Shown: positions 10,696-29,250, counted from the first letter of the stretch. The stretch: 32,000 bases of DNA from Flavobacteriaceae bacterium (GCA_965224465.1 OZ245049.1:3240001-3272000), one strand, 5' to 3'. Notes: generated by a model from the letters alone, not told the origin. A program made the numbers and translations.

Positions 10696-12771
10696 ATGAA
10701 ATATATAGTGCTCATTTCCCTATTTTTTTGCTCATTTTTTGGGCGTTCCCAGCTATTGGAAACGAATCAACGGAAGTTAGATTCTATGTATCAGAATGCT
10801 CTTAATACAAAGCATACTGTAGAGAATAGATGTAAAGTTTACAAAAGTATTTGTTGGAAGGTTGTATATCGAGATCATCATCAGGGCTTACAGTATGCTT
10901 CGGAATATTATTCTTTGGCAATTGCTGCTCACTTGCCTAAGCATATTGCAGCTGCATCTCATTATTTGGGGATTTCTCAGATGTTACTTGGTAATTATGA
11001 TCTTTCAAATACAAGTTTTACAGAAGGCTTAGAGATTTCTTTAAAAACTAAAAATTTTTACCGAGCAGCTATGTTGTATGCGGATTTAGGGAATCTAATG
11101 GTTAAAACAGGTAAAATAGTTGCTGGAATGGAGTTTCATGAGAAATGTCTAAAAGTAGCTGAAGAGCACCATTTAATTGTTCAAAAAGCACGTGCAAAAA
11201 TTAATATCAGTCAAATCTATGAAAATCGAGGAGACTATAAGCAAAGTCTTAAAACATTGCAAGAAGCATTGTTAATATGTAAGGAGCATAAGCTAATTGG
11301 GTATATGTCTTCTGTATATGAAAGTCTTGGAGATGTGTTTTTAAATATTAAGGAGTTTGGGTCGGTTGAGAAAAATTATAAATTGGCATTAAAATTTGCT
11401 GAGAAAACAGATAATTCGAACAGAAGAATTCATTCTTTAACTAAATTGGCTAAAGTCAATCACGAGCAAGATAGTTTAAATATAGCCTCTAACTATTATA
11501 AAGAAGCACTGGAAATTGCATCCTCAAAAAACTTTCCTGCCCTTAAAGCATTGGTGTTGTCGGGTATTGCTAGTACTAAATTGAAGCAACATAAACTGGA
11601 TGAATCATTAAAGGATATCCTAGCATCGATCGCTCTTTTTGAAGCGTATGATGTGCAAGAAGATTTAGACCAAGCGTATTTGGTCGCAGCTCAGGTGTAT
11701 ACTGCTTTAGGAAGAAAAAAAGAGAGTACAAATTATTATCAGAAGTGCTATTACTTAGCGTTTTTGAATAGTAATTTCAAGCTATTAAACAGCGTGACTA
11801 AATCCCTTGCTGTTATTTCCGAGGACAAGGGGAATCAAGTATTAGCACTTAAATACTACAAAGAGTTTATTAAATATAATGGACTAAAAAGAGATGATGA
11901 TGATGTAAAGGAACTTATTAAGTTAGAGCTTAAAGCCAATTATCGAAATAAGGTGATTTTAGATAGTTTGAGTAAGAATGCTGAAATTATGTTATTAAAG
12001 GCAGCACATAGTAGAAGTGAAGCCTATAGTTTACTCAAAACCTATTTAGCGTATGCAGGTATAGGGATACTTTTTATGATACTTATATTTGGTCTGTATT
12101 TTTTTGAGCAGAAAAAAAGAGTTGCTGTTATCCTTGTGAATAAAAATCGCATTATAGCGAAAGCGCTTAAGGATAAGGGAACGCTTTTAAACGAAGTCCA
12201 TCATCGAGTAAAAAATAATATGCAAGTCGTTTCTTCGCTATTAAAGCTAAAGTCTATGAGTACCAATAATGAGTTTGCGAAAGTAGCACTCGTTGATAGC
12301 CAGAAACAAATTGAATCTATGCTGTTGGCACATCAAAAATTACATCAAAAAGGAAGTTTTGAAAGGATCTGTATTGTGGACTATTGTCGTGATATTGTCG
12401 CATTATTGTTGGGGTCTATCAAAACGGAAAAAGATGTTTTTATGGTTCATGGTGATACCTTGCTTATTCATATAGAACAAGTTCAGACATTTGGTTTTAT
12501 TATCAATGAATTGATTACAAATAGTCTTAAACATGCTTGGGGGCAAGATCAAAAAAAGAGGATTGAGCTCACTTTTCAAAAACGAGATAACGAGGTTCTG
12601 TTTGAATATTTAGACAATGGAAAGGGAATGGCAACTGATTTTAATATTAAGGAGTCCAAATCATACGGCACAAGATTAATCTATTCGCTTGTTAAGAGAC
12701 AGTTATTAGGGAATATTGGATTCTATTCTAAGAATGGAATTCATATAAAAATAAAATTTGATGCAAGATAA
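10696..12771 (+). CDS. TPR-repeat sensor histidine kinase (HisKA_2-type phospho-acceptor plus HATPase)
   Basis: The track ORF starts at a TTG (10645). The ATG at 10696 gives MKYIVLISLFFCSFFGRSQ (signal peptide) and is preferred. It has a TPR-like region, a TM helix (YLAYAGIGILFMILIFGLYFF), the HisKA_2 signature LLNEVHHRVKNNMQVVSSLLKLK, and ATPase boxes INELITNSLKHAW, LDNGKGM and YGTRLI. Confidence 0.8.
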   Translation: MKYIVLISLFFCSFFGRSQLLETNQRKLDSMYQNALNTKHTVENRCKVYKSICWKVVYRDHHQGLQYASEYYSLAIAAHLPKHIAAASHYLGISQMLLGNYDLSNTSFTEGLEISLKTKNFYRAAMLYADLGNLMVKTGKIVAGMEFHEKCLKVAEEHHLIVQKARAKINISQIYENRGDYKQSLKTLQEALLICKEHKLIGYMSSVYESLGDVFLNIKEFGSVEKNYKLALKFAEKTDNSNRRIHSLTKLAKVNHEQDSLNIASNYYKEALEIASSKNFPALKALVLSGIASTKLKQHKLDESLKDILASIALFEAYDVQEDLDQAYLVAAQVYTALGRKKESTNYYQKCYYLAFLNSNFKLLNSVTKSLAVISEDKGNQVLALKYYKEFIKYNGLKRDDDDVKELIKLELKANYRNKVILDSLSKNAEIMLLKAAHSRSEAYSLLKTYLAYAGIGILFMILIFGLYFFEQKKRVAVILVNKNRIIAKALKDKGTLLNEVHHRVKNNMQVVSSLLKLKSMSTNNEFAKVALVDSQKQIESMLLAHQKLHQKGSFERICIVDYCRDIVALLLGSIKTEKDVFMVHGDTLLIHIEQVQTFGFIINELITNSLKHAWGQDQKKRIELTFQKRDNEVLFEYLDNGKGMATDFNIKESKSYGTRLIYSLVKRQLLGNIGFYSKNGIHIKIKFDAR

Positions 12772-13459
12772 AAAGAGTTTTAAAGTGTTGATTGTTGATG
12801 ATGACGTGTTTATTTCTGAAATGCTCTGTGTTATTTTAGAAGCGTTAGGCTATGTTGTTCAAGACATTGCTTTTGATGCTAAGAGTGCGATTGCGTCATT
12901 AAAAACAAGCCTTCCTGACGTTGTTATTTTAGATATTCAAATGCATGGTGAAAATCAGGGTTTTACAATAGCAAAGTACATTAAAGAGCATTTAGATATT
13001 CCCTATATTTTTCTGACATCGTTTGCTGATGAAGCTACGGTAATTGAGGCTTCTCAGTTTACCCCAGATGGATATTTACTAAAACCTTTTAACGAACGTG
13101 ATATCTATGCAACACTCAATGTAATTCTCAGTAAATACAATAAAGAAATAAAATACATAGATTTAAAGGTTGGGCATAGGGTGCATAAAGTGAAAAAGGA
13201 AGACCTTCTTTGGGTAAAATCCTCAGACAAGTATATTGAGATTTACACCAAACAAAGGAGTTTTGTAAAACGGGACAGTATCGAATCATTTATGGAATTT
13301 CACCAATTAAAAAGCTTTATTCGAGTACACAGGTCTTATGCTGTGAAAATAGACGAAATAGAGAGCGTAAAAGGAGCGAAAATATTTATAGCGAAGCAAG
13401 AAATACCTATTTCAAAAACCTATCAAAAAGCATTTAAAAAAGCGTATTTATTAAATTAG
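12758..13459 (+). CDS. LytTR-family response regulator (REC plus LytTR DNA-binding domain)
   Basis: 233 aa. REC residues: LIVDDD, VILDIQM, FLTSF, LLKPF. The C-terminal LytTR domain reads DLLWVKSSDKYIEIYTKQRSFVKRDSIESFMEF...FIRVHRSYAVKIDEIESV...IPISKTYQKAFKK. It overlaps the kinase gene by 14 nt. Confidence 0.9.
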   Translation: MMQDKKSFKVLIVDDDVFISEMLCVILEALGYVVQDIAFDAKSAIASLKTSLPDVVILDIQMHGENQGFTIAKYIKEHLDIPYIFLTSFADEATVIEASQFTPDGYLLKPFNERDIYATLNVILSKYNKEIKYIDLKVGHRVHKVKKEDLLWVKSSDKYIEIYTKQRSFVKRDSIESFMEFHQLKSFIRVHRSYAVKIDEIESVKGAKIFIAKQEIPISKTYQKAFKKAYLLN

Positions 13460-13547: not shown

Positions 13548-13577
13548 TTCACGGACAAAACCCCTTCATTCACGACA
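13548..13577 (+). promoter_or_regulatory. direct-repeat operator candidate, copy A: TTCACGGACA-N11-TTCACGACA
   Basis: The half-sites start 21 nt apart (13548 and 13569) and are followed by TTTATTTTTTT. The flanks and the spacer differ from the other copies while the half-sites are conserved. Confidence 0.5.
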
Positions 13578-13736
13578 TTTATTTTTTTATGAATGATTAA
13601 AATATTAATGTTGCACATCAATTCGTTTAAGTAGTTAGTATTGCTTTTATGAAATGATGGATGTGTATTATTTTGAATGAATGTATTGTTTTTTAAAAAA
13701 TGAGAAAGAGTAGTATGGAGCACTTACCTCCATGGT

Positions 13737-13897
13737 ACCAATTACAATGCAAAATGACCGATATGAATAGTTTATTTCACGTTCTGTAATTGTTGAAAAA
13801 CAGAACGATAGCTAAGGATATCCATTCGTTTTTCTCCTACCTAAAACAAAAAATAAGTCCATTTATAAACCGTCAATGGAAATGTGTTTGGTATTAT
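13737..13897 (-). repeat. noncoding repeat family R, copy R1 (inverted relative to R3/R4)
   Basis: Aligns by eye with 14355..14500 and, as a reverse complement, with 23897..24083 and 29148..29250. Shared strings include AAAATGACCGAT and AAACCGTCAATGGAAATGTGTTTGG. No ORF is conserved. Confidence 0.6.
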
Positions 13898-13910
13898 ATA
13901 TAGTCTCTAG

Positions 13911-14203
13911 TGAAGAATGTTCGGATGTTAATTCTGGAATTTAGGGAACTAACAGTCGACTTTAAATATATTTTTGAGAATAGCTTTATACCTGTAGAAG
14001 TAAATTCAATGGGTATCATTGGGGAGTAAGGGTTTTTTAAAACCGTTACTTCCTAAGGCTATTTCAAGAAAAAATATCAATCAATATTTTAAGGGTGATT
14101 TTGTCCTGAAAGCACTTAAGTAATAGCGATAAAAAACGATGTAACGGTTTCTTTTTAAACGGTATTAAGTTTATTAGGTATCGATAATCAAATAACGTTA
14201 AAT
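13911..14203 (+). pseudogene. highly decayed remnant homologous to 15100..15437 (TonB C-terminal-domain-like gene fragment)
   Basis: Shares blocks with the second remnant: GTTACTTCCTAAGGCTATTT vs GCTACTTCCTAAAGCTATTT, and GGTATTAAGTTTATTAGGTATCGATAATCAAATAACGTTAAA vs GCGTATTAAGTTTGTTGGTTATCGATAATCAAATAACGTTAAA. No intact reading frame remains. Confidence 0.25.
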
Positions 14204-14354
14204 ATTAGTATTTACGAAGAACTACATAGTCCTAATTCACATAGTCCAGTTTTTTATTTCTTTATTTTTTTAACTCGTAAAGTTAAACCCTGTTTTTTGA
14301 GTTAGATATTGGCAGGTGTTAAATATACAGCGCTGGAAAGAAGGGAGGTGTAAT

Positions 14355-14500
14355 TCAATTACAACCCAAAATGACCGATCTGAATAGTTTGTTTTACATT
14401 CTAGCGTTGTTATAAAAAGGCTATCCATCCATTTTCCGCCTAGTTAAAACAAAAAATAAGTCTATTTCTAAACCGTCAATGGAAATGTGTTTGGCGTAAT
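14355..14500 (-). repeat. noncoding repeat family R, copy R2
   Basis: Same family as R1. Relative to the homologous leader at 19285..19360, this block looks like an insertion of roughly 200 bp between GGGAGG and GTTGTTTTA(A/G)GAGAGGCATCATATCCACGATCC. Confidence 0.6.
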
Positions 14501-14702
14501 AGGCATTATCTATTTTTTAAAAGCACAAATTAGAATGGCGTTGTTGTTTTAAGAGAGGCATCATATCCACGATCCAACGAATTATTTCGGGGGACAATAT
14601 GAAGAAACTTTATTTTTTTTAGGGATTAAACCTGAATTATAATTTAAAGTAGAAACGAATAAAGCACCTCAAAAAAAGCAAAAAAACATATTATACAGTC
14701 TG

Positions 14703-14732
14703 TTCACGGACACAAGTCTTTGATCCACGACA
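14703..14732 (+). promoter_or_regulatory. direct-repeat operator candidate, copy B: TTCACGGACA-N11-TCCACGACA
   Basis: Half-sites at 14703 and 14724 (21-nt phasing). The site sits in the leader upstream of the small ORF / adhesin 1. It is identical to copy C, including the spacer. Confidence 0.5.
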
Positions 14733-14993
14733 TTTCTTTTTATATGAATTATGAAAGCATTAATGTTGTCTATCAATTTGTTTATGTCTATTTCAAATAA
14801 GATGTAAAACGCCTTTTTAATTGGTTTAATTGCTGATTATATGTAGTGATTGGTATGTTGTGTTTTGGTTGGATGTGTTTTTTTACAGAAAAAACATGTA
14901 AAAAGATGCTGTTTGTGGACGGGTGCCTTTTGTGATATATTTCAATATCCCCTTTTTTTTGTCTCCACTTTTTAATAATTAAACGAATGTTTT

Positions 14994-15437
14994 ATGAAAA
15001 TAATAAGTACGTGTGTATTGTTTTTAATGCTGTGTTTTATGATGAGTGTTGCTCAAAATAAGAAAGAGTATGTAGCTGCTCTTTTACCTCCATTAAATTT
15101 AGTTGCTAAGAAAAATTGTGTGGATGTAAATCCTGAATTTATTTCAATAACAATCCTGAGTTACAGGGGCTGATAATGGATTTCAAAAGAGTTTTACAAA
15201 ACAGCTTTATTCCAGTAGCGTTTGATGTGTCTTCAAATGGTATTGTTGAGAGTGCAACAGTTTTTAAACTGCTACTTCCTAAAGCTATTTTAAAAAATAA
15301 TGAAGTTGATCTTAATCCTTTTTAGGTAATTTATTGGGATAAAAATCATTAAAAAAGCAGCAAATAAAAACGGGGTAGCTGTTGCTTTTAAAAGCGTATT
15401 AAGTTTGTTGGTTATCGATAATCAAATAACGTTAAAC
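14994..15437 (+). pseudogene. frameshifted TonB C-terminal-domain-like secreted protein gene: an intact 59-aa signal-peptide ORF (14994..15173), then out-of-frame remnants
   Basis: 14994..15173 encodes MKIISTCVLFLMLCFMMSVAQNKKEYVAALLPPLNLVAKKNCVDVNPEFISITILSYRG*. The VDVNPEF motif resembles the V-x-PxFPGG entry of flavobacterial TonB_C-type proteins. A shifted frame (15176..15325) gives MDFKRVLQNSFIPVAFDVSSNGIVESATVF..., and a third frame gives ...NKNGVAVAFKSVLSL.... The family assignment is tentative. Confidence 0.3.
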
Positions 15438-15464
15438 CCCATTACTCATTAAATAATAACAGAA

Positions 15465-18266
15465 ATGAAAAAAATATTAATTTTAGTAACAATCATGTTT
15501 ACAAGTTTTGTGTTTTCACAAAATAGAGGTAAAGTATGGTATTTTGGAGACAAAGCAGGTTTAGATTTTAATACAGATCCACCAACAGTTCTAACGAATG
15601 GTATGTTATCTACAAATGAAGGCTGTGCTTCAATATCGGACGCTTCGGGTAGTTTATTGTTTTATACTGGAGGGAGAAAGGTTTATAATAAGAATCATGT
15701 TCTAATGCCAAATGGGACAAGTGGTTTGGGAGGGGACACTTCAAGTGCTCAGTCTTCAATAATTGTTCCAGATCCAGGTAATCCAGACAGGTTTTATATT
15801 TTTGCTGTTTCTGTATACCCAAGTTCTAATGTTGTTTATTCATTAATAGATATGACCTTGGATGGAGGGAACGGGGATGTGGTTTCTGGTGCAAAGGCGA
15901 TGCCATTATTAATAGGAACTTCAGAGTGTATACAAGCTACTTTATCTGCTGATGGAACTTTTTGGTGGGTGTTAATGAATAAAGCCAATACAAATTCATA
16001 TTATGCATACAAAGTTACTGCTTCAGGAGTCGATGCTACACCCGTAATATCTTCTCTAGGAGCTGCTTCACAGGTAAGTGGAGGTATTTCTTATATTAAA
16101 TTTAATATCTCAGGCAGCAAAATGGTGAAAACTGGATTTTATATTAATTCTTTTGACTTATGTGATTTTGATACAGCTACTGGAGAAGTGACCTCTTCTT
16201 TGACCTTTCCCCTTGATAAGGCGTATGGTGTTGATTTTTCCCCAAATGGTAGGTTTATATATGTTGGGTCACTTAATACAGGTGTATATCAATATGATTT
16301 AAATGCAGGAAGTACGCAAGTAGCAATTGAGGCGTCAAAGTTTGAGGTGTTTACTGGTCGTAGTATAGGTGCTATTCAGGCCGCTCCTAACGGAAAAATA
16401 TATGTATCAAGATTTCAAAGTAGTCTTGATTATATTGGGAGTCCCAATAGTTTAGGGGTGGCGTGTGGCTACGTTTCTCAAGGCCAGAGTTTATCGGGTA
16501 AGTATGCGGCATTTGGTCTTCCAAATATAGTGTCCTTTTTTGTATCTACGGGGCCTCCTATTTTATCTAATTGTAGTACAACGTTGTTAACAGAGAATAG
16601 TGTTTCCTTAAATGTAGATGTTACTGGAGATGGTGGAGAAGACATCAGTCAAAGAGGGTTTTATTATGGTACAAGCCCAAATCCAACAACTAATCAGACC
16701 TTGGTTGCTGGTACTATAGGAACAATGGGGACTCCAGTTACTGGTTTAGTACCGGGGACTTTGTACTATTATAGGGGGTTTGCTACCAATTCTAATGGGA
16801 CGACTTATATGGCTGATTGTACATTTACAACGATTGTTTCAACCAATAATTACCCTACAATTACTGCTATTTCTAACCAATTTATTTGTCCAAATTCAGC
16901 GACAGCTCCGTTGTCTTTTACTATAGATGATGCTGAAACTCCAGTTGCTTCTTTAGTTGTTTCTGCCGTTTCTTCAAATACTACGTTGATACCAAATGCA
17001 AGTATTGTTATATCAGGTTCTGGAGCAACTCAAAGGGTTACAGTAACACCTGCTCTTGGTCAGACGGGTCTGGTAACCATTACTTTAACCGTATCGGATA
17101 CAGATTCAGGAACTGTAAGATCTATCTATACAGTAGATATAATTGATGTGACCAATCCTGAAATACCAACCTTGTCTGATATAACAAGCGAATGTTCGGT
17201 ACTTGTACCTGTACCAACTACGACAGATAATTGTACAGGAACAATTACAGGGACAACAGATGATCCATTGACCTATACAGCAATAGGTTCCTATACCGTT
17301 AACTGGAAATTTTCGGATGGGAATGGAAATTCAATTTTAGTTGCACAGAAAGTTACCATTACTGATGTGACCAAGCTAGTAGTCCCAACCTTGTCAGACA
17401 TAACAAGTGAATGTTCGGTACTTGTACCTGTACCAACTACGACAGGCAGCTGTACAGGAACAATCACAGGAACAACAGATGACCCGACGACCTATACAAC
17501 ACAGGGTTCTTATACAATCAATTGGACATTTGATGATGGAAACGGAAACTCAATTGTAGTTCCACAAAAAGTAGTTGTTAAAGACGTGACCAAACCTGTA
17601 GCAATAGCTCAAGACCTTACACTCACGTTAGATGATTTGGGTGAGGGTAGTATTTTAGCTTCAGATATTGATACTGGAAGTTCTGATAATTGTGACTTCA
17701 CCTTATCATTAGATATAGATACGTTTGATTGCTATACGATAGGTGATTATACGGTAATACTTAATGTTGAAGATGCAGCAGGGAATATTTCAACAGCGGC
17801 CGCTGTAGTGACTATTATGGGGGATGATAATGATGCTGATGGGATGGTAGATGCCTGTGATGAAGATGATGATAATGACGGTATTTTAGATGTAGATGAT
17901 AATTGTCCATGGAAATCAAATCCAAAACAAATTGATTTAGACAAAGACGGAACCGGAGATGTATGTGACGATTCTGTGGATATTTCAGTGACTCCTAACG
18001 ATACATTGACCCCAAATGGTGATGGTGTAAATGATTCTTGGCATATAGAAAATATACAGAAATATCCTTATGCTACCGTAAAAGTATTTAATAGAAATGG
18101 AGTTGAAGTATTTAAAAGTTCGAATTATAAAAATGATTGGGGAGGAGAATCTGCTAAAGGAGGAAGCGGCTTATTACCTGCAAATTCCTATTATTATATC
18201 ATCAATTTAAACCAACCTAAATCTGGTGCAAGTCCAATTACAGGGTGGTTTTATATTAATTATTAG
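15465..18266 (+). CDS. T9SS type-B cargo adhesin 1: propeller-like head, FN3/Ig-like domains, 2 HYR-like repeats, TSP3-like Ca motifs, gliding-motility C-terminal sorting domain
   Basis: 933 aa with signal peptide MKKILILVTIMFTSFVFSQ and a unique N-terminal ~560 aa. The C-terminal 228 aa are shared with the other two adhesins: [28 protein letters not shown]...[13 protein letters not shown], then [16 protein letters not shown]...VKVFNRNG...YKNDWGG...SYYYIINL...ITGWFYINY. This is the signature of the Bacteroidota gliding-motility / T9SS type-B CTD. Confidence 0.9.
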   Translation: MKKILILVTIMFTSFVFSQNRGKVWYFGDKAGLDFNTDPPTVLTNGMLSTNEGCASISDASGSLLFYTGGRKVYNKNHVLMPNGTSGLGGDTSSAQSSIIVPDPGNPDRFYIFAVSVYPSSNVVYSLIDMTLDGGNGDVVSGAKAMPLLIGTSECIQATLSADGTFWWVLMNKANTNSYYAYKVTASGVDATPVISSLGAASQVSGGISYIKFNISGSKMVKTGFYINSFDLCDFDTATGEVTSSLTFPLDKAYGVDFSPNGRFIYVGSLNTGVYQYDLNAGSTQVAIEASKFEVFTGRSIGAIQAAPNGKIYVSRFQSSLDYIGSPNSLGVACGYVSQGQSLSGKYAAFGLPNIVSFFVSTGPPILSNCSTTLLTENSVSLNVDVTGDGGEDISQRGFYYGTSPNPTTNQTLVAGTIGTMGTPVTGLVPGTLYYYRGFATNSNGTTYMADCTFTTIVSTNNYPTITAISNQFICPNSATAPLSFTIDDAETPVASLVVSAVSSNTTLIPNASIVISGSGATQRVTVTPALGQTGLVTITLTVSDTDSGTVRSIYTVDIIDVTNPEIPTLSDITSECSVLVPVPTTTDNCTGTITGTTDDPLTYTAIGSYTVNWKFSDGNGNSILVAQKVTITDVTKLVVPTLSDITSECSVLVPVPTTTGSCTGTITGTTDDPTTYTTQGSYTINWTFDDGNGNSIVVPQKVVVKDVTKPVAIAQDLTLTLDDLGEGSILASDIDTGSSDNCDFTLSLDIDTFDCYTIGDYTVILNVEDAAGNISTAAAVVTIMGDDNDADGMVDACDEDDDNDGILDVDDNCPWKSNPKQIDLDKDGTGDVCDDSVDISVTPNDTLTPNGDGVNDSWHIENIQKYPYATVKVFNRNGVEVFKSSNYKNDWGGESAKGGSGLLPANSYYYIINLNQPKSGASPITGWFYINY
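17145..17582 (+). repeat. in-frame tandem repeat, 2 x 219 nt (73-aa HYR-like unit)
   Basis: Units start at 17145 and 17364; the next domain starts at 17583. Unit consensus: [73 protein letters not shown]. Confidence 0.9.
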
Positions 18267-18280
18267 TAAAAAATAGATAA

Positions 18281-19156
18281 ATGAAGAATATATATATAAT
18301 CGTAGGGGTTTTTATGATGCTATGTTCAATAACAACACTGGCACAGCAAACACCAGAATATACTTTTTGGAGACAAAATATGGTCTTGGTAAATCCTGGA
18401 TATGTGGGGAGTACAGAAAAAGTAGAGATAAGTATTAATAGTTATAAAGATAAGCTTCAAGGTGTTTATGAGGGACCTAAAACACTTTCGCTTACCGCGC
18501 AGTGGAGTCTTAATGATAAGGTGGGGCTTGGTTTAGATATTGTTACAGACAATGTTTTTATTCAGAAAGAAACCAATGTATTTGTGGATTATTCGTATAA
18601 ATTAAGTTTTGGAGAAAAGCGAGATTTATATTTAGGATTGAAAGCGGGAGGTAGTTTTTTTAATGTTGATTTTTCAAGATTAAAAACAGTTGATCCTGCA
18701 AATCAAGGAGAGGTAAGTAACTTTAATCCCAATGTTGGAATTGGAGTGTATTACAAAACGAATAACTATTTTGTGAGTTTGTCAGCACCAAGGATCTTAA
18801 AAGCCAAACGTTACGAGGATGTATCAGGAGTTGCGCAAGAAGCATCTGATGCCACATTGCTTATGTTTGGAGGAGGCTATTGGTATGATTTGAGTACAGA
18901 CATTCAGATTGTACCTGCATTCATGACTCGTTATATTGATGGTGCGCCATTTTCTTTTGACCTTTCTACCTCCGTTCGTTTTTATGACAAGATGGAATTA
19001 GGCGTAAATTATAGGTTAAATAATGCTATTTCTGCTATGGTCTCTTTTGAAATTCTAAAAATGATAGACATAGGATTTGCGTATGACTATTCGATATCAA
19101 CTATAAATACTCAAACAGATGGCGGCCCAGAGTTTTTATTAAAAGTAAAATTTTAA
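18281..19156 (+). CDS. PorP/SprF-family type IX secretion outer-membrane protein, paralogue 1
   Basis: 291 aa with signal peptide ...TLAQQ and the family N-terminal signature QQTPEYTFWRQNMVLVNPGYVGS (compare QQDPxFSQYxxNxxxxNPAYAG). It has beta-barrel-like alternating strands and a terminal F. It starts 14 nt after the adhesin stop codon. Confidence 0.9.
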   Translation: MKNIYIIVGVFMMLCSITTLAQQTPEYTFWRQNMVLVNPGYVGSTEKVEISINSYKDKLQGVYEGPKTLSLTAQWSLNDKVGLGLDIVTDNVFIQKETNVFVDYSYKLSFGEKRDLYLGLKAGGSFFNVDFSRLKTVDPANQGEVSNFNPNVGIGVYYKTNNYFVSLSAPRILKAKRYEDVSGVAQEASDATLLMFGGGYWYDLSTDIQIVPAFMTRYIDGAPFSFDLSTSVRFYDKMELGVNYRLNNAISAMVSFEILKMIDIGFAYDYSISTINTQTDGGPEFLLKVKF

Positions 19157-19227
19157 GAAGCTGAAATCAAATTTTTAGGGAATGAAGAAGGGGGGCTAAA
19201 AAGATGTTTTCTGTTTAAATACAAAGG

Positions 19228-19279
19228 TTAATACCAAATACATTTCTAAGTGACGTTTTAGAAATGTATTTGGTATTAA
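19228..19279. repeat. perfect 22-bp inverted repeat (hairpin, 8-nt loop) at the cassette 1/2 junction
   Basis: TTAATACCAAATACATTTCTAA (19228-19249), loop GTGACGTT, TTAGAAATGTATTTGGTATTAA (19258-19279). The left arm equals the first ~35 nt of R3/R4 and the right arm equals the terminal nucleotides of R1/R2. It may act as the cassette-1 terminator. Confidence 0.8.
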
Positions 19280-19494
19280 ACCATGTTTTTGAATTGAATA
19301 TTGGCAGGTGTTAAAAAGGGAGGGGTATAAGAGTGTTGTTTTAGGAGAGGCATCATATCCACGATCCAACGAATTATTTTTGGGGACAACATGAAAAAAC
19401 CCCATTTTTTTTAGGCGATTAAACCCGAATTATAATTTAAAGTAGAAACGAATAAAGTACCTAAAATTAGCGAAAAAACATATTATATAGTCTG

Positions 19495-19524
19495 TTCACG
19501 GACACAAGTCTTTGATCCACGACA
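19495..19524 (+). promoter_or_regulatory. direct-repeat operator candidate, copy C: TTCACGGACA-N11-TCCACGACA
   Basis: Half-sites at 19495 and 19516 (21-nt phasing). The site ends 79 nt upstream of the adhesin 2 ATG (19603). Confidence 0.55.
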
Positions 19525-19602
19525 TTTCTTTTTATAGCTGTCCATAAATTAGTACCATTGTTAACGACATTTTTTTAAACGTTCTAATAAATAACTAAAT
19601 TT

Positions 19603-22600
19603 ATGAAAACAAAATTATTTTTACTCATGTTAATCATGAGTTTTATGGGGTTTTCCCAAACTACCAATATTCCAGATGCTAATTTTGAACAAGCATTGGT
19701 TGACCTAGGAATTGATTCCAATGGTCTAAATGGAACGATATTGAATGCAGATGCAATTGGAGTACGTACATTACAAATTGAAAGTAAAAACATTGTTGAC
19801 TTAACAGGTATTGAGGTTTTTACAGATTTAGTGAACTTAAATTGCAACTATAATCAGTTAACTCGTTTAGAGCTAACACAGAATGTGAAATTAAAAAACT
19901 TATCTTGTAGATTTAATCAAATAGCAAGTTTAGATATAACACAGAATTTGGATTTAAGGCAATTAGATTATAGTAGTAATCAAGTATCTAATTTGGATCT
20001 AAGTCAACATACGTCATTGGTTTATTTAATGTGTTTTTCTAATCAGATAAGTGACATAGATATAACAAAAAATACGGTTTTAAAGTATTTTTATTGTAAT
20101 GATAATCAGTTGACTAGTTTAGATATAACACAGAACTCTTTATTAGTATCTCTTGATTATAGTATCAATCAGATACCTAATTTAGATGTAAGTCAACATG
20201 CATTTTTAATAGAATTAAAGTGTACTTCCAATCAAATAACGAGTTTAGATGTTACAAATAACCTGGTTTTAGAAAGATTGAATTGTTCTTCAAATCAGTT
20301 AACTAGTTTAGATGTTACACAGAATATAGCTTTGATGTTTCTTGATTATTCTTCAAATGAAATATCGAATTTTGATGGTACAAAGAACCTAGCTTTGGAG
20401 TCACTTAATTGTTCTGTAAATCAATTAATGATTTTAGATGTTTCAAAGAACCTAAATTTAATAGTATTATATTGTTATATCAATAAAATAACTGCTTTAG
20501 ATTTAAGCAAGAACACGAGTTTGAGAACTTTTTATTGTTTTTCTAATAGGTTAACAAGTTTAGATATTAGAAATGGGGAGAATAAGAATTTTACTGGTTT
20601 TTCTGCTCAGTTTAATCCAACTCTTTTATGTATTTTGGTGGATGATGCATCTTGGAGTACTGTAAATTGGGAAAATATAGATGCTACCTCTAGTTTTAAT
20701 GATAGCTGTTGTAGTACTTCACTAACATTAGACAATTCAAGCTTAAAAGACTTAAAAGGGTTTTGTTCCGTTGCAAATCCAATAGCTCCTACCGCAACTA
20801 CTAGTTGTGGTGAAACTATAACAGGGACAACTTCAACAGTCTTTCCAATAGAAATTCAGGGGGCATCCGTTGTTACTTGGGACTTTGATGATGGAAATGG
20901 ACATAAGACGGCACAGACACAAAAGGTTATTGTAAAAGACACCCAAGCACCAATAATTCCTACTTTGTCAGACATCACAGGCGAATGTTCTGGAACAGTA
21001 CCTGTACCAACTACAACAGATAATTGTTCAGGAATAATTACAGGAACAACAGATGATTCATTGACCTATACAGGAAAAGGCTCCTATACAGTCAATTGGA
21101 AATTCACGGATGAGATTGGAAATTCAATCGTAGTTGCACAGAAAGTAATTCTTACTGATGTGACCAAGCCAGCAATTCCAACCTTGTCAAACATCACAGG
21201 CGAATGTTCTGCAACAGTACCTGTGCCAACTACAACAGATAATTGTTCAGGAATAATTACAGGAACTACAGATGAACCGTTGACTTATACAGGAAAAGGT
21301 TCCTATATAGTCAATTGGAAATTTACGGATGAGATTGGAAATTCAATCGTAGTTGTGCAGAAAGTAATTCTTACTGATGTGACCAAGCCAGCAATTCCAA
21401 CCTTGTCAGACATCACAGGCGAATGTTCTGTAACAGTACCTGTACCAACTACAACAGACAATTGTACAGGAATAATTACAGGAACAACAGATGATCCGTT
21501 GACCTATACAGGAAAAGGTTCCTATACAGTCAACTGGAAATTTGATGATGGGAATGAAAATTCAATCATAGTTGCACAGAAAGTAATTGTTACTGATGTG
21601 ACCAAACCAGTGATTCCAAGCTTAATAGACATCACAGGCGAATGTTCTGCAACAGTACCTGTGCCAACTACAACAGACAATTGTACAGGAATAATTACAG
21701 GAACAACAGATGATCCATTGAGCTATACAGGAAAAGGTTCCTATACAGTCAACTGGGAATTTTCGGATGGGAATGGGAATTCAATTGTAGTTCCACAAAA
21801 AGTACATGTTGCTGATGTGACCAAACCAGTAATTCCAACCTTGTCAGACATCACAGGCGAATGTTCTGTAACAGTACCTGTACCAACTACGACAGATAAT
21901 TGTTCAGGAATAATTACAGGAACAACAGATGATCCATTGAGCTATACAGGAAAAGGTTCCTATACAGTCAACTGGAAATTTACGGATGAGATTGGAAATT
22001 CAATCGTAGTTGCACAGAAAGTAACCGTTACTGATGTGACCAAGCCAGTGATTCCAAGCTTAACAGACCTCACAGGCGAATGTTCTGTAACAGTACCTGT
22101 ACCAACTACAACAGACAATTGTACAGGAACAATCACAGGAACAACAGACGATCCATTGACTTATACAACACAAGGTTCTTATAGAATCAACTGGACATTT
22201 GATGATGGAAATGACAATTCAATCGTAGTTGCACAGAGAGTAATTGTTAAAGATGTGACCAATCCTGTAGCGATGGCTCAAGACTTTTCGCTCACTTTAG
22301 ATGATTTGGGTGAGGGCAGTATTTTAGCTTCAGATATTGACAATGGAAGTTCTGATAATTGTGACTTCACCTTGTCGTTAGATATAGATATGTTTGATTG
22401 CTATATGATAGGTGATTATACGGTAATACTTAGTGTTGAAGATGCAGGAGGAAATATTTCAACAGCGACTGCTGTAGTGACTATTCTGGGTGATGATAAT
22501 GATGCTGATGGTATGGTAGATGCTTGTGATGAAGATGATGATAATGACGGTGTTTTAGATGTAGATGATAATTGTCCATGGAAATCAAATCCAAAACAAA

Positions 22601-22935
22601 TTGATTTAGACAAAGACGGGACCGGAGATGTCTGTGATGATTCTGTGGATATTTCAGTGACTCCTAACGATACATTGACTCCAAATGGTGATGGTGTAAA
22701 TGATACTTGGCATATAGAAAATATTCAGAAATATCCTTTTGCTACGGTAAAAGTATTTAATAGAAATGGACTTGAAGTATTTAAAAGCAGGAATTATAAA
22801 AATGATTGGGGAGGAGAATCTACTAAAGGAGCAAGAGGCTTATTACCTGTAAATTCTTATTATTATATCATCAATCTAAACCAACCAAAATCTGGTGTAA
22901 GTCCAATAACAGGGTGGTTTTATATTAATTATTAG
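19603..22935 (+). CDS. T9SS type-B cargo adhesin 2: leucine-rich-repeat head, 6 (+1 degenerate) HYR-like repeats, TSP3-like Ca motifs, type-B CTD
   Basis: 1110 aa with signal peptide [19 protein letters not shown]. About 12 x 22-aa LRRs ([21 protein letters not shown]). The stalk and C-terminus are near-identical to adhesins 1 and 3. Confidence 0.9.
19762..20568 (+). repeat. about 12 tandem 66-nt (22-aa) leucine-rich repeats in the adhesin 2 head
   Basis: Recurrent pattern such as [74 protein letters not shown]. The units are diverged at nucleotide level. Confidence 0.8.
20938..22251 (+). repeat. in-frame tandem repeat, 6 x 219 nt (73-aa HYR-like unit)
   Basis: Unit starts at 20938, 21157, 21376, 21595, 21814 and 22033; the array ends at 22251. 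A degenerate partial unit precedes it ([44 protein letters not shown]). Confidence 0.9.
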
Positions 22936-22949
22936 TAAAAAACAGATAA

Positions 22950-23825
22950 ATGAAGAATATATATATAATCGTAGGGGTTTTTATGATGCTATGTTCAATA
23001 ACAACACTAGCACAGCAAACACCAGAATATACTTTTTGGAGACAAAATATGGTCTTGGTAAATCCTGCCTATGTGGGGAGTACAGAAAAAGTAGAGATAA
23101 GTATTAATAGTTATAAAGATAAGCTTCAAGGTATTTATGAAGGGCCTAAAACACTTTCGCTTACCGCGCAGTGGAGTCTAAATGATAAGGTGGGGCTTGG
23201 TTTAGATATTGTTACAGACAATGTTTTTATTCAAAAAGAAACCAATGTATTTGTGAATTATTCGTATAAATTAAGTTTTGGAGAAAAGCGAGATTTATAT
23301 TTAGGATTGAAAGCGGGAGGTAGTTTTTTTAATGTTGATTTTTCAAGATTAAAAACAGTTGACCCAGCAAATCAAGGTAAGGTAAGTAACTTTAATCCCA
23401 ATGTTGGAATTGGAGTGTATTACAAAGCGAACAACTATTTTGTGAGTTTATCAGCACCAAGGATCTTAAAAGCCAAGCGTTACGAGGATGTGTCAGGAGT
23501 TTCGCAAGAAGCATCTGATGCCACATTACTTATGTTTGGAGGAGGGTATTGGTATGATTTGAGTACAGACATTCAGATTGTACCTGCATTCATGACTCGT
23601 TATATTGATGGTGCGCCGTTTTCTTTTGACCTTTCTACCTCCGTTCGTTTTTATGATAAGATGGAATTAGGCGTAAATTACAGGTTAAATAATGCTGTTT
23701 CTGCCATGGTATCTTTTGAAATTCTAAAAATGATAGACATAGGATTTGCGTACGACTATTCGATATCAACTATAAATACTCAAACAGATGGTGGTCCAGA
23801 GTTTTTATTAAAAGTAAAATTTTAA
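22950..23825 (+). CDS. PorP/SprF-family type IX secretion outer-membrane protein, paralogue 2
   Basis: 291 aa with 7 substitutions relative to paralogue 1. The 14-nt spacing after the adhesin stop codon is the same. Confidence 0.9.
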   Translation: MKNIYIIVGVFMMLCSITTLAQQTPEYTFWRQNMVLVNPAYVGSTEKVEISINSYKDKLQGIYEGPKTLSLTAQWSLNDKVGLGLDIVTDNVFIQKETNVFVNYSYKLSFGEKRDLYLGLKAGGSFFNVDFSRLKTVDPANQGKVSNFNPNVGIGVYYKANNYFVSLSAPRILKAKRYEDVSGVSQEASDATLLMFGGGYWYDLSTDIQIVPAFMTRYIDGAPFSFDLSTSVRFYDKMELGVNYRLNNAVSAMVSFEILKMIDIGFAYDYSISTINTQTDGGPEFLLKVKF

Positions 23826-23896: not shown

Positions 23897-24083
23897 TTAA
23901 TACCAACTATATTTCCAAGTGACGGTTTAGAAATCGAATTATTTTTTGTTTTAGCTAGGCGAAAAATGGAAGAATAGCCTTCGCTATGGTTCTATTTTTT
24001 AACAACGTTAGAACGTAAAATAAACTATGTATATCGGTCATTTTGGATTGCAGTTGGTATAATTTAAATTACTGCCTTTTTTT
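23897..24083 (+). repeat. noncoding repeat family R, copy R3 (full length), ending in a weak terminator hairpin plus T run
   Basis: Starts TTAATACCAACTATATTTCCAAGTGACGGTTTAGAAAT (left arm of the 19228 palindrome). It continues as the reverse complement of R1/R2 and ends GCAGT-16 nt-ACTGC followed by CTTTTTTT (24050-24083). Confidence 0.6.
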
Positions 24084-24122: not shown

Positions 24123-24152
24123 TTCACGGACAAAACTATTTCATCCACGACA
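24123..24152 (+). promoter_or_regulatory. direct-repeat operator candidate, copy D: TTCACGGACA-N11-TCCACGACA
   Basis: Half-sites at 24123 and 24144 (21-nt phasing), ~270 nt upstream of the adhesin 3 ATG. The surrounding leader is otherwise unrelated to the leaders of copies B and C. Confidence 0.5.
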
Positions 24153-24418
24153 TTTCTTTTTTTAAGAGGTACTAAAACGGTAGTATTGTGTATTATTTTA
24201 TTGTAAAAATAGGATGTATTCAATTTATCCCCATAGATAGTGCTTGTTGTTCATTTTTTTATTTGCAGATTTTTTTCTTGTTTGAAGAGATTAAAACCTG
24301 TAATAATGTCACTTCTGAAATTGAAATATCCCCTTTGTTTTAAAAAGATAAATCATTTAAAAATCACTTCCAATAGGAGGATGTAAACTTATATATTTCT
24401 TAACTATTATATCTAATT

Positions 24419-27400
24419 ATGAAAAGACTATTACTTATTTATTCAATGTTCCTTTTAGGGAGTCAATTTATGAATGCCCAAACATTGGTTGCTGGAGATA
24501 TCGCAATTATAGGTGTAAATGAGGATGCTAGTCCTGAAATCGGTGAAGATCATAGTTTTACATGGATTGCACTTAAAGAAATACCAGCAGGCGAAATTAT
24601 TTACTTTACCGAGCAAGGAGTCAATACGGTTACTATGGAATGGTATGGGAATACGGAGGGACATTTTAGTTGGACTGCGCCATCTGGAGGCTTAGCATGT
24701 GGGTCAATTGTTCATATTTATGAGAAAGGACAGACGGATGTTATGGGGGTTTTGGGAGGAGGAACCGTATCTCCTATTTTATCAGGTATAGGTTGGAACT
24801 TGGTCGGAGGTGATCAGGTGCTGGCTTACTGTGCATCGGATGTGAGAGCTTCAATCTCAAGTACTGTTTTTATTACAGGAATTCATTTAGGTGATGACGG
24901 TTCCTATGGGAAAACAAATGGTTGGACTTCTCTTTCTTTTATTGGGACAAGTTATGGTATGTGTCATTTACCTCCTGGCTTGACAAATGGTGTTGATTGT
25001 ATTTCATTGTTTAATCCCTATGAAGGGCTCTTTGAAATAGATAATAATAGGTATTCGGGATCTTTAGAGGGGACAGCTTCTGAATTGAGAGCGTTAATCA
25101 ATACTAGTTATAAGTTATCTAGGGGGGATTGGGAGGGAGATAACAATCTTCCAAAGAATATTTCAATTGAGAGCTACTCTCCAAATGTGATATGCGAAGC
25201 AGCATGTATAGCTCCTGATGCCCCAACAATTACCGTAGATGATCATATGGTATGTTTAGGGGGGGCGATTACTTTATCTATTTCAGGATCATTGAATGAT
25301 GCTTCAGCTTGGTATATTTATACATCATCCTGTGGGTCTAGTTCTAATCTCGTAGGAACTACTTCAGGGTCTAGTTTTGAGGTGACTCCGTATTTTGCTG
25401 CTACTTACTATATTAGGGGAGAAGACGGTACTGGATGTGTCGATGAGTCTACAGTGCCGTGTGGAGAAATAAAGCTGTTCGGAGATCCTTCATTAACGTA
25501 TACAGAATTTAGTTACGAGTCAGAAAGCTATTGTTTGAATTCCTCGGATCCAACACCAACAATTACAGGTTTGTCAGGTGGGACGTTTACGAGTTCTCCG
25601 TCAGGCTTATCTATTGATTCTAGTACAGGATTGATTGATGTTTCGGCTTCCATAGTAGATGTTTATCTCATCAAATATACAGTAGCAGAGTGTACTGAAT
25701 CAAGTATGTTTCGCGTGAGTATAAAAGCTTTTGATGATGCGTCTTTCAATTATGAAACTGCAAGTTATTGTTTGAATGCCTCGGATCCAACACCAACAAT
25801 TACAGGTTTGTTGGGGGGAGTGTTTACGAGTTCTCCATCAGGCTTGTCTATTGATTCTAGTACAGGATTGATTGATATTTCGGCTTCCACGAAAGGTGTT
25901 TATGGAGTTATATATACAACAACAGGAACTTGTAGCCGTTCGTCTGGTGTTTATGTAACCATTGAAGACATAACCGATCCTGAAATCCCAACCTTGTCAG
26001 ACATCACAGGCGAATGTTCTGCAACAGTACCTGTACCAACTACAACAGATAATTGTTCAGGAATAATTACAGGAACAACAGATGAGCCATTGAGCTATAC
26101 AGGAAAAGGCTCCTATACAGTCAACTGGAAATTTACGGATGAGATTGGAAATTCAATCGTAGTTGCACAGAAAGTCATTCTTACTGATGTGACCAAACCA
26201 GTAGTTCCAACCTTGTCAGACATCACAGGCGAATGTTCTGCAACAGTACCTGTACCAACTACAACAGACAATTGTTCAGGGACAATCACAGGAACAACAG
26301 ATGAACCGTTGACTTATACAGGAAAAGGTTCCTATATAGTCAATTGGAAATTTACGGATGGGAATGGAAATTCAATCGTAGTTGCACAGAAAGTAACCGT
26401 TACTGATGTGACCAAACCAGTTGCTCCAAACTTAACAGACATCACAGGCGAATGTTCTGTAACAGTACCTGTACCAACTACGACAGATAATTGTTCAGGA
26501 ATAATCACTGGGACAACAGATGAACCGTTGACTTATACAGGAAAAGGTTCCTATATAGTCAATTGGAAATTTACGGATGGGAATGGAAATTCAATCGTAG
26601 TTGCACAGAAAGTAACCGTTACTGATGTGACCAAACCAGTTGCTCCAAACTTAACAGACATCACAGGCGAATGTTCTGTAACAGTACCTGTGCCAACTAC
26701 GACAGATAATTGTTCAGGAATAATCACTGGGACAACAGATGATCCAGTAAGTTATACAGGAAAAGGCACCTATACAATCAACTGGAAATTTTCGGATGGG
26801 AATGGGAATTCAATTGTAGTTCCGCAGAAAGTAATTGTTACTGATGTGACCAAGCCAGTGATTCCAAGCTTAATAGACATCACAAGCGAATGTTCTGCAA
26901 CAGTACCTGTGCCAACTACAACAGACAATTGTACTGGAATAATTACAGGAACAACAGACGATCCGTTGACCTATACAGCAAAAGGTTCTTATACAATCAA
27001 CTGGAAATTTGATGATGGGAATGAAAATTCAATCATAGTTGCACAGAAAGTAATTGTTACTGATGTGACCAAGCCAGTGATTCCAAGCTTAATAGACATC
27101 ACAGGCGAATGTTCTGCAACAGTACCTGTGCCAACTACAACAGACAATTGTACTGGAATAATTACAGGAACAACAGACGATCCGTTGACCTATACAGCAA
27201 AAGGTTCTTATACAATCAGCTGGAAATTTGATGATGGGAATGGGAATTCAATCGTAGTTGCACAGAAAGTAATTGTTACTGATGTGACCAAACCAGTAGT
27301 TCCAACCTTGCCAGACATCACAGGTGAATGTTCGGTACTTGTACCTGTACCAACTACGACAGATAATTGTTCAGGAATAATTACAGGAACAACAACAGAA

Positions 27401-28183
27401 CCGCTGACCTATACAGCACAAGGTTCTTATACAATCAACTGGATATTTGATGATGGAAACGACAATTCAATTGTAGTTGCACAGAGAGTAATTGTAAAAG
27501 ATGTGACCAATCCTGTAGCGATAGCTCAAGACTTTACGCTCACTTTAGATGATTTGGGTGAGGGCAGTATTTTAGCTTCAGATATTGACAATGGAAGTTC
27601 TGATAATTGTGACTTCACCTTGTCGTTAGATATAGATATGTTTGATTGCTATACGATAGGTGATTATACGGTAATACTTAGTGTTGAAGATGCAGGAGGA
27701 AATATTTCAACAGCGACTGCTGTAGTGACTATTCTGGGTGATGATAATGATGCTGATGGTATGGTAGATGCTTGTGATGAAGATGATGATAATGATGGTG
27801 TTTTAGATGTAGATGATAATTGTCCATGGAAATCAAATCCAAAACAAATTGATTTAGACAAAGACGGGACCGGAGATGTCTGTGATGATTCTGTGGATAT
27901 TTCAGTGACTCCTAACGATACATTGACTCCAAATGGTGACGGTGTAAATGATACTTGGCATATAGAAAATATTCAGAAATATCCTTTTGCTACGGTAAAA
28001 GTATTTAATAGAAATGGACTTGAAGTATTTAAAAGTAGGAATTATAAAAATGATTGGGGAGGAGAATCTACTATAGGAGGAAGCGGCTTATTACCTGTAA
28101 ATTCTTATTATTATATCATCAATCTAAACCAACCAAAATCTGGTATAAGTCCAATAACAGGGTGGTTTTATATTAATTATTAG
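24419..28183 (+). CDS. T9SS type-B cargo adhesin 3: unknown head, 2 x 79-aa Ig-like repeats, 7 HYR-like repeats, TSP3-like Ca motifs, type-B CTD
   Basis: 1254 aa with signal peptide [21 protein letters not shown] and a unique ~515-aa N-terminal region. The stalk and C-terminus are near-identical to adhesin 2. Confidence 0.9.
25508..25966 (+). repeat. 2 x ~237-nt (79-aa) tandem domain repeat in the adhesin 3 head
   Basis: [48 protein letters not shown]... aligns with [48 protein letters not shown].... Unit starts at 25508 and 25745. Confidence 0.8.
25967..27499 (+). repeat. in-frame tandem repeat, 7 x 219 nt (73-aa HYR-like unit)
   Basis: Starts at 25967 ([18 protein letters not shown]...); the next domain starts at 27500, and 7 x 219 = 1533 nt. 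Adjacent units 2/3 (plus the start of 4) and 5/6 are almost identical at nucleotide level. Confidence 0.9.
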
Positions 28184-29147: not shown

Positions 29148-29250
29148 TAATACCAAATACATTTCCAAGTGACGGTTTAGAGATAAAATAAACTATGTAT
29201 ATCGGTCATTTTGGATTGTAGTTGGTATAATTTAAATTACTGCCTTTTTT
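29148..29250 (+). repeat. noncoding repeat family R, copy R4 (internally deleted), with a weak terminator hairpin plus T run
   Basis: TAATACCAAATACATTTCCAAGTGACGGTTTAGAG is joined directly to ATAAAATAAACTATGTATATCGGTCATTTTGGATTGTAGTTGGTATAATTTAAATTACTGCCTTTTTT. It lacks ~85 nt that are present in R3. Confidence 0.6.

Follow-up and report, generated by a model that had tools for sequence, protein, structure and literature searches.

A candidate LytTR-type direct-repeat operator upstream of type IX secretion adhesin cassettes in Flavobacteriaceae

Introduction

Almost nothing is known about how Bacteroidota choose among the many adhesins that they secrete through the type IX secretion system (T9SS). 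This question is raised in concrete form by a 32,000-nt stretch of DNA from a Flavobacteriaceae bacterium (GCA_965224465.1 OZ245049.1:3240001-3272000), to which we refer as the window and whose positions we count from its first nucleotide. In the window, a sensor kinase gene and the gene of a LytTR response regulator are followed by tandem adhesin cassettes, and a 30-nt block built as a direct repeat, one copy of which lies at 19495-19524, recurs through the same region. What is this block for, and which protein reads it? An original prediction, made from the window alone, took it for an operator through which the kinase/regulator pair controls the cassettes. Here we examine the block, the DNA that follows it and the corresponding loci of other species, and conclude that each copy is likely to serve as an activator site upstream of a sigma-A promoter that depends on the regulator.

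The DNA sites of LytTR regulators consist of two repeats of 9-11 nt separated by a spacer of 11-13 nt, and they have no common consensus (PMC4847170). The repeats sit 4-11 bp upstream of the -35 element; the geometry is kept from system to system, whereas the sequence of the repeats is poorly conserved (PMC6193735).

Results

To define the element, we scanned the window for TTCACGGACA-N11-TYCACGACA, allowing up to two mismatches. The scan gave four matches, all on the plus strand and all with 0 mismatches: copy A at 13548-13577 (TTCACGGACA-AAACCCCTTCA-TTCACGACA), copy B at 14703-14732, copy C at 19495-19524 and copy D at 24123-24152. The same pattern was matched in 0 of 100 dinucleotide-preserving shuffles of the window. 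These are exactly the copies that the original prediction had listed, and its description of them is accurate: half-site 1 is constant, half-site 2 varies at position 2 only (T in copy A, C in copies B, C and D), and the 11-nt spacers are AAACCCCTTCA, CAAGTCTTTGA (twice) and AAACTATTTCA. The two half-sites, TTCACGGACA (10 nt) and TYCACGACA (9 nt), form a direct repeat that is imperfect by a 1-nt indel; their starts are 21 bp apart, giving a layout of 10 + 11 + 9 nt. When we rescanned the window with a position weight matrix (PWM) built from 20 related sites, no further site reached at least 12 bits; the true sites score 37-55 bits, against a maximum of 11 bits in shuffled sequence.

The homology among the four copies begins abruptly at the left edge of half-site 1 and runs 43-90 bp downstream, through a T-tract (TTTnTTTTTnTA) and an invariant TAnnnTTG box that all four copies have in common. 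The shared stretch measures 90 bp between copies A and B (80% identity) and 81 bp between copies B and D; between copies B and C it extends to 204 bp (92% identity), upstream flank included. The claim that the flanks of copies A and D are unrelated to those of B and C is therefore correct for the upstream side alone.

A strain variant provides a view of how these copies behave when the cassettes around them change. The contig L015 (from an ENA metagenome, 16.9 kb), which corresponds to 10.6-29 kb of the window, encodes an identical regulator protein and a different complement of cassettes. Of its three motif copies, one has a spacer not seen in the window, AAACTTCTTCA, and keeps the half-sites in a fifth sequence context. 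The order on the contig is promoter B, a 1228-aa adhesin, the new-spacer promoter, an intact 87-aa open reading frame (ORF) and another adhesin. An identical regulator beside different cassettes indicates that cassette turnover has been recent and that the operators have stayed intact. When the five contexts known within the species are compared, variation affects 1 of the 19 half-site positions and 6 of the 11 spacer positions (Fisher p = 0.0045).

These comparisons bear on the alternative that the copies have no regulatory role and simply record that cassettes were recently duplicated, or else serve as sites at which cassettes are shuffled by recombination. The cassettes are evidently paralogues, as the long block common to copies B and C illustrates, their number differs between the window and L015, and the adhesins are full of 219-bp repeats; all of this would be expected of a duplicating locus. 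It would not account for spacers that diverge where half-sites do not, nor for a 30-mer retained by other genera, in loci with one copy each, and by a lineage of 50% GC content, where the surrounding intergenic DNA can no longer be aligned. The gene and domain calls of the window include no recombinase, and recombination between direct repeats would merely delete cassettes. We regard duplication or shuffling as a very improbable explanation of the motif, and the preference of the original prediction for protein-binding constraint over duplication history is supported.

If the block is an operator, a promoter should be found nearby, and the invariant box downstream of the T-tract provides a candidate. 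In each of the four window copies, CACGACA is followed after exactly 28 nt by TAnnnTTG, and this holds for 17 of the 27 non-redundant sites taken together. Another six sites deviate slightly, either by having TAnGTTCG (at an identical offset or at +1) or by a 1-nt shift of the box. The 28 nt between CACGACA and the box vary in sequence, but the spacing is fixed. The -7 box of flavobacterial sigma-A promoters reads TAnnTTTG and spans -12 to -5 (PMC9723704), and the window boxes (TAATGTTG in A and B, TACCATTG in C, TAGTATTG in D) each match it at 7 of 8 positions, with TA and TTG invariant. Because the -7 box stands at a fixed offset, the start sites are predicted at the motif end +41. On this basis, promoter A (-7 box at 13606-13613, plus strand, as are the other three) would start transcription at ~13618 and heads a decayed cassette at 13618-14700; promoter B (14761-14768) would start at ~14773; promoter C (19553-19560) would start at ~19565, leaving a 38-nt leader to the ATG at 19603; and promoter D (24181-24188) would start at ~24193, with a 226-nt leader. 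A 12-nt sequence, AATATCCCCTTT, at 14944-14955 and 24325-24336, occurs in both of the leaders that are predicted to be long, those of promoters B and D, and recurs in L015 at 7620; ~0.3 chance matches are expected. A scan for sigma-70 promoters and terminators of the Escherichia coli type was uninformative for Bacteroidota DNA, giving 34 promoter-like sites where 50 were expected.

With these start sites, the half-sites would occupy about -70 to -61 (half-site 1) and -49 to -41 (half-site 2). The original prediction had placed a site in every adhesin-cassette leader. This wording needs correction on two points: the sites appear to lie upstream of the predicted transcription start sites and not within transcribed leaders, and copy A heads a decayed cassette. 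In silico, no window copy is found inside a transcribed leader that lacks a promoter downstream, a -7 box following every one of them, so that this ground for refutation, named by the original prediction itself, does not apply. The 28-nt box offset, taken with the predicted start sites, puts the beginning of the expected -33 element about 4-5 nt past half-site 2. At this position most sites have TTTnTTTT, with no G, and TTTG is found in L043 and L047. A T-rich, G-less region would be consistent with a weak, activator-dependent -33 element.

The same geometry allows one to ask whether a bound regulator might silence the promoter instead. If it acted as a repressor or anti-activator, the LytTR regulator would block access to the upstream/-33 region of a promoter that is otherwise constitutive, with silencing either lifted or imposed by phosphorylation. 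Steric interference is conceivable for a site that ends about 4-5 nt before the expected -33 element, and the linkage of motif and regulator described below fits a repressor equally. Taken as a whole, a good -7 box, a -33 region lacking G and a site whose centre falls near -55 nevertheless make up the standard layout of an activator-dependent promoter; this layout matches that of LytTR activators, whose repeats lie 4-11 bp upstream of -35 (PMC6193735), and the sites stay clear of both the -7 box and the predicted start site. Repression through these sites seems to us unlikely.

We also considered that the block might act as RNA, that is, as a leader, an attenuator, a small RNA (sRNA) element or the 3' end of the regulator transcript. 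A position just past the regulator stop codon, a T-run after half-site 2 and a G-U-rich hairpin that the minus strand of copy D can form might each be taken to favor a function of this kind. Folding both strands of the four copies, however, gave no significant structure (z -1.4 to +0.6), so that the minus-strand "terminator" over copy D is dismissed as a G-U-rich coincidence, and the plus strand consists of C/A-rich direct repeats that are unable to pair. Copies C and D are 6-10 kb from the regulator gene, and the copies of L043 and L047 lie upstream of, and divergent from, the regulator. With the conserved -7 box on its downstream side, the motif is probably left out of the transcript that its own promoter would yield. 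A search of Rfam 15 at permissive thresholds gave no match at the motif, with sub-threshold matches only at 19213-19294 (a hairpin) and 13982-14102. An RNA function is thus hardly credible, and a protein-binding site upstream of a promoter is the reading that we carry forward.

Which protein binds it? The regulator gene (12761-13459, plus strand) encodes a 232-aa protein with REC and LytTR domains (Pfam Response_reg 4e-21, LytTR 7e-16) and overlaps the end of the kinase gene (10696-12771, plus strand). It is the one LytTR regulator that Pfam finds in the window, as the original prediction had it, and its stop codon lies 88 nt before copy A, in a position relative to the motif that recurs in orthologous loci. 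Its predicted phospho-acceptor, D58, is invariant in alignments, as are T86 and K108. A profile of the LytTR domain matches AgrA (3bs1, E = 1.5e-6), ComE (4cbv) and 3d6w; a PDB search with the single sequence of the domain reached 3d6w only, and the profile was required to reach AgrA and ComE. The protein aligns end to end with the NCBIfam BtsR model, below the cut-off of that model, and the closest named regulators, from Winogradskyella and Lacinutrix, are ~62% identical. This regulator is very probably the binder of the motif.

The kinase (691 aa; Pfam TPR_12, TPR_MalT, HisKA_2 and HATPase_c) consists of a signal peptide or first transmembrane segment, a TPR region of ~430 aa that is predicted to be periplasmic, a second transmembrane segment, and HisKA_2 and HATPase_c domains; hydropathy analysis shows two hydrophobic segments. 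Its orthologues are also 691 aa long and start MK(H/Y)....

To determine how constant the partnership of motif and regulator is, we fetched comparison loci from metagenomes and named genomes by regulator homology alone. The motif, with up to three mismatches, is present on the same strand 21-384 nt after the regulator stop codon in 14 of the 15 non-redundant loci whose regulators are 58-100% identical, including those of Winogradskyella thalassocola and Lacinutrix sp. C3R15. Only L040/L041, with a regulator of 57% identity, departs from this. Conservation in orthologous loci, which the original prediction had proposed as a check, is thus found, and it extends to three more distant loci. In one of them, L031, the regulator is 34% identical and the contig has 50% GC, yet the layout of the window is kept: kinase, regulator, TTCACGGACATAATTCCGCAGTTCGCGACA 21 nt past the stop codon, a 115-aa ORF, a 3060-aa CHU_C adhesin and PorP. 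In the other two, L043 and L047, an orphan regulator (47-48% identity) lies between two divergent motif copies (in L043 at 7792-7826 on the minus strand and 8753-8786 on the plus strand, with TAnGTTCG boxes; the layout of L047 is the same). On one side of these regulators are SprB-like (PF13573) CHU_C giants, and on the other a large ORF, which is a 2455-aa Por_Secre_tail protein in L047; its L043 counterpart is cut at the contig end and has no domain call. Spacer length is 11 nt throughout the window copies and the orthologues, and 12 nt in L043 and L047. Near the regulators of L044, L045 and L048 (35-37% identity) no site was found. Over the sites collected, the information content peaks at ACGnACA and CACGACATTT and is ~0 in the upstream flank.

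The gene neighborhoods of these loci separate the regulator from its neighbors. Related regulators in L042, L043 and L047 are orphans without an adjacent kinase, and neighboring genes other than the regulator differ between loci. Because the kinase is not always present and the other neighbors vary, the regulator is the constant partner of the motif. What lies downstream also differs between species, and, as far as gene and domain calls indicate, it is almost always T9SS cargo: every complete downstream gene has a T9SS sorting domain, either CHU_C (window, L019, L020, L031) or Por_Secre_tail (two genes of L021, L022, L047). In the Winogradskyella/Lacinutrix group, the promoter instead precedes a signal-peptide-like ORF of 30-58 aa, followed by a conserved hairpin and terminator and then fabD.

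A further link is provided by the regulator itself. The LytTR domain contains the sequence (S/A/D)DKYIEI in 12 of 12 motif-associated regulators, and three regulators of 35-37% identity without a nearby motif have HVYTEI, DNYTQI or HVYVEV instead. Among the sequences compared, the DKYIEI signature thus segregates with the presence of the motif, and its presence in L031 explains why the motif is retained there at 34% regulator identity. In the profile alignment, the segment aligns with AgrA S165-L171 (SSTKSHRL), H169 included. We take H169 to be a base-contacting residue in the AgrA-DNA structure, on the loop that is aligned with DKYIEI. The residues of LytTR loops determine specificity (PMC4847170).

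This evidence must also be weighed against the alternative that the block, while promoter-proximal, serves some other factor, be it a different transcription factor or an alternative or ECF (extracytoplasmic function) sigma factor, its adjacency to the LytTR gene being a by-product of a T9SS cargo neighborhood. The half-sites are unlike the Firmicute LytTR consensus, and the window contains a second two-component cluster, of NarL type, at 1131-5750. Set against these points, the LytTR regulator is the sole consistent neighbor, the NarL cluster and the other neighbors being absent from orthologous loci, and the presence of the motif co-varies with the DKYIEI signature. The downstream cargo varies (CHU_C adhesins, Por_Secre_tail proteins, small ORFs), and the motif therefore tracks the regulator and not one target. 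The elements are direct repeats and not a -35/-10 pair, with a sigma-A -7 box at a fixed distance. A different factor is, on balance, quite improbable, and the LytTR regulator remains our candidate.

The second cluster comprises a TPR protein (651 aa), a NarX/UhpB-type TPR histidine kinase (667 aa) and a NarL-like response regulator (225 aa). The last of these, at 5073-5750, is the only other response regulator of the window. We considered it as the binder and rejected it: it is unrelated to the LytTR regulator and not conserved in orthologous loci. After this cluster come a TonB-dependent receptor (6223-9039) and a 401-aa protein (9073-10278) that was called a beta-helix on L015 and whose window copy matched no family.

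The genes that the promoters would control are arranged as three tandem units on the plus strand, each consisting of an adhesin (933, 1110 and 1254 aa) and then a PorP/SprF protein of 291 aa. Adhesin 1 (15465-18266) has HYR-like and TSP3 repeats and a CHU_C type-B T9SS sorting domain, and its partner is encoded at 18281-19156 (Pfam PorP_SprF 1e-57; TIGR03519). Adhesin 2 (19603-22935) has LRR, HYR_4C and TSP3 repeats and a CHU_C/TIGR04131 type-B sorting domain, with its PorP_SprF partner at 22950-23825; adhesin 3 (24419-28183) has HYR_4C and TSP3 repeats and CHU_C, with its PorP_SprF partner at 28198-29073. CHU_C is found in all three adhesins (2e-23 to 8e-23) and PorP_SprF in all three partners (~1e-58), and the scores for TIGR04131 in the adhesins and TIGR03519 in the PorP/SprF proteins exceed their cut-offs.

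Copy A heads ~1.1 kb of decayed cassette, made of remnants of a small secreted-protein gene (one at 13971-14202) and an inter-cassette repeat, after which copy B follows. A frameshifted gene of the same small secreted-protein kind, recognized by three-frame translation, occupies 14977-15450 (plus strand) between promoter B and adhesin 1, and an intact 87-aa version of it is found in L015 at 13142-13405. Small ORFs also precede adhesins in L020, L031, L043 and L047, but we rejected them as a conserved component, since their homology is confined to individual clades.

Several repeats punctuate the cassettes. The inter-cassette repeat, of ~160 bp, occurs in both orientations at 77-90% identity (13736-13896 and 14356-14494 on the plus strand, 23898-24059 and 29148-29227 on the minus strand), and its end resembles the arms of the terminator-like hairpins after the PorP genes. 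A long hairpin ends each cassette unit; the example at 19214-19293, after PorP gene 1, is an 80-nt near-perfect palindrome, the source of sub-threshold Rfam "miRNA precursor" matches, and is probably the cassette terminator. Within the adhesin genes, arrays of 219-bp tandem repeats (17130-17680, 20800-22350, 25950-27600) are of HYR_4C type, with up to 7 copies of 85-95% identity, and are common to the paralogues, and adhesin 2 has in addition 63-bp LRR repeats at 19840-20600. The 219-bp and LRR arrays are likely to be the substrates for the variation in copy number and cassettes between the window and L015.

Discussion

We have described a recurrent block whose layout of 10 + 11 + 9 nt has the direct-repeat architecture published for LytTR sites (PMC4847170, PMC6193735), in agreement with the original prediction. 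Repeat length (9-11 nt), spacing (11-13 nt), a predicted place upstream of the -35 equivalent and a linked LytTR gene are all as that architecture demands. In the searchable literature we found no earlier definition of a LytTR operator in Bacteroidota, as had been supposed, and no link between LytTR regulators and T9SS cargo. The architecture itself is textbook LytTR, and the motif, very probably the binding site of the regulator, would be the first LytTR operator proposed for the phylum. The original prediction went further and had the TPR-kinase/LytTR pair control the adhesin/PorP cassettes through these sites. Linkage, promoter geometry and the regulator signature support this, binding and regulation being deduced from them; the kinase, however, is not always present, and the regulator is the constant partner.

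How might such a system work? In the mechanism that we propose, a signal would be received by the large, predicted periplasmic TPR domain of the co-transcribed kinase, which would phosphorylate the regulator at D58. The phosphorylated regulator would bind as a head-to-tail pair to TTCACGnACA and TYCACGACA, 21 bp apart, and from its predicted position at -70 to -41 would bring in sigma-A RNA polymerase at a promoter whose -7 box is good and whose -33 element is presumably poor. The output would be joint transcription of the tandem units, each comprising an optional small ORF, a T9SS type-B adhesin gene and a PorP/SprF gene. As the full consensus of operator and promoter we propose TTCACGnACA-N11-TYCACGACA-N28-TAnnTTTG.

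Although we consider an upstream activator site to be the likely function of each copy, several of our observations weigh against it. The Firmicute LytTR consensus is [TA][AC][CA]GTTN[AG][TG]. The half-sites miss it, matching by eye ~5 of 8 specified positions at best in either orientation, though this consensus is not strictly defining. The repeat is also less regular than the window copies suggest: distant relatives keep only GNACA of half-site 1, while CACGACA is invariant, which makes the "direct repeat" asymmetric. Moderate conservation also extends to the spacer (AAAACTCCTT) and the T-tract, and part of the signal may therefore reflect DNA shape or promoter constraint and not base contacts. 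Since the sites were found through pattern similarity, their apparent invariance is inflated by ascertainment bias, and many of the comparison loci are related to one another. At L040/L041, a DKYIEI-type regulator of 57% identity has no motif within the 14 kb examined. In the window, neither the PWM scan nor flexible regular expressions gave additional weak sites or a site upstream of the kinase-regulator operon, unlike the autoregulation that is typical of Gram-positive LytTR systems. A scan of 596 Gb of genome contigs, which did not reach the source genome, with the 18 specified bases returned 14 single matches in unrelated phyla and none in Flavobacteriia, a number close to chance (~17, calculated from 596 Gb x 2 strands / 4^18). 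Finally, two reverse-strand copies (L029/L030 and L042) have no -7 box at +28.

These reverse-strand copies read GGACA-N13-CACGACA and lie upstream of regulators of 44-46% identity (L042 at 7798-7827 and L029 at 5695-5724, both minus strand). The L042 copy is followed by a structured GC-rich stretch, and the L029 copy lies between two divergent two-component operons, with an A-run in place of the T-run. They may be autoregulatory or sRNA-driving variants of the site.

The 30-58-aa ORF of the Winogradskyella/Lacinutrix group raises a separate possibility. In four loci (L038 7994-8483, L039 10770-11320, L025 2701-3172 and L027 10772-11354), the putative regulator-dependent promoter leads into a short predicted transcript, of ~350-450 nt, with a conserved ORF of the form (M/V)KK..FAIALV.AQ..., which is signal-peptide-like, has Gln after the likely cleavage site, and is followed by a variable region, the conserved hairpin, an intrinsic terminator and fabD. 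About half of the codons that changed between L027 and L039 are synonymous, which suggests that the ORF is truly coding. It calls to mind a pheromone precursor, or agr RNAIII/hld. One might therefore imagine the module as a Bacteroidota counterpart of the agr/com circuits, in which the peptide is a secreted autoinducer sensed by the TPR domain of the kinase, or the transcript is a dual-function RNA like RNAIII/hld. We consider this unlikely. If it were true, the adhesin cassettes of the window would be under density or contact control through a peptide-sensing TPR-kinase/LytTR pathway of a kind not described from the phylum.

Independently of what the kinase senses, the activator-site reading amounts to a testable model of a regulon, with a consensus, four predicted start sites and a named regulator that carries the DKYIEI signature. 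The pairing of regulator and motif is conserved from Flavobacteriaceae to the 50%-GC lineage. The model would open the way to genome-wide regulon prediction in marine flavobacteria and to a search for the signal of the TPR kinase. It would also carry the LytTR rule, by which two repeats are spaced two helical turns apart, over to -33/-7 promoters.

It is instructive to compare the proposed system with those already known. PorX/PorY-SigP, in Porphyromonas and Flavobacterium, is a known regulatory input to type IX secretion in Bacteroidota. PorX has a PglZ output domain and works with an ECF sigma factor on T9SS machinery genes, whereas the protein described here is a DNA-binding LytTR regulator placed before cassettes of cargo and PorP/SprF genes. 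FimS/FimR of Porphyromonas gingivalis is a Bacteroidota two-component system with an N-terminal TPR sensor kinase and a surface (fimbrial) adhesin output. Both features are shared by the present system, and our kinase gives a weak N-terminal match to NCBIfam FimS; at 25.6 bits against a cut-off of 600, we rejected it as a FimS orthologue, and FimR belongs to the OmpR family, hence its operator is of a different type from that of LytTR.

A LytTR system of similar design is that of AgrA at the agr P2/P3 promoters of Staphylococcus aureus. Both regulators consist of REC and LytTR domains, both regulator genes adjoin a target promoter (a proposed one here), and in both cases two imperfect direct repeats about two helical turns apart lie upstream of the -35 element or its equivalent, at promoters that depend, or here would depend, on an activator. 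They differ in phylum, in half-site (TTCACGnACA here, ACAGTTAAG-like for AgrA), in promoter type (Bacteroidota -33/-7 here) and in targets, which are T9SS adhesin cassettes here and a peptide-pheromone operon and RNAIII there; no autoregulatory site was found in the window, and AgrC is a polytopic sensor, unlike the present kinase with its predicted periplasmic TPR domain. ComE/BlpR/PlnC and HdrR-BrsR of streptococci and lactobacilli likewise use 9-bp direct repeats with an 11-13-bp spacer and repeat one operator across several promoters (PMC6193735), but they autoregulate and control bacteriocin or competence genes, whereas here the site lies downstream of the regulator operon, before surface adhesins. 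A Gram-negative comparison is offered by the LytS/LytTR two-component systems of YpdB (at the yhjX promoter) and BtsR/YehT in Escherichia coli, where a LytTR regulator binds a direct repeat of the 10-nt motif GGCATTTCAT (PMC4847170); these are paired with LytS-type kinases with five transmembrane segments and have single transporter targets, in contrast to the TPR-HisKA_2 kinase and the several T9SS cargo cassettes of the system proposed here.

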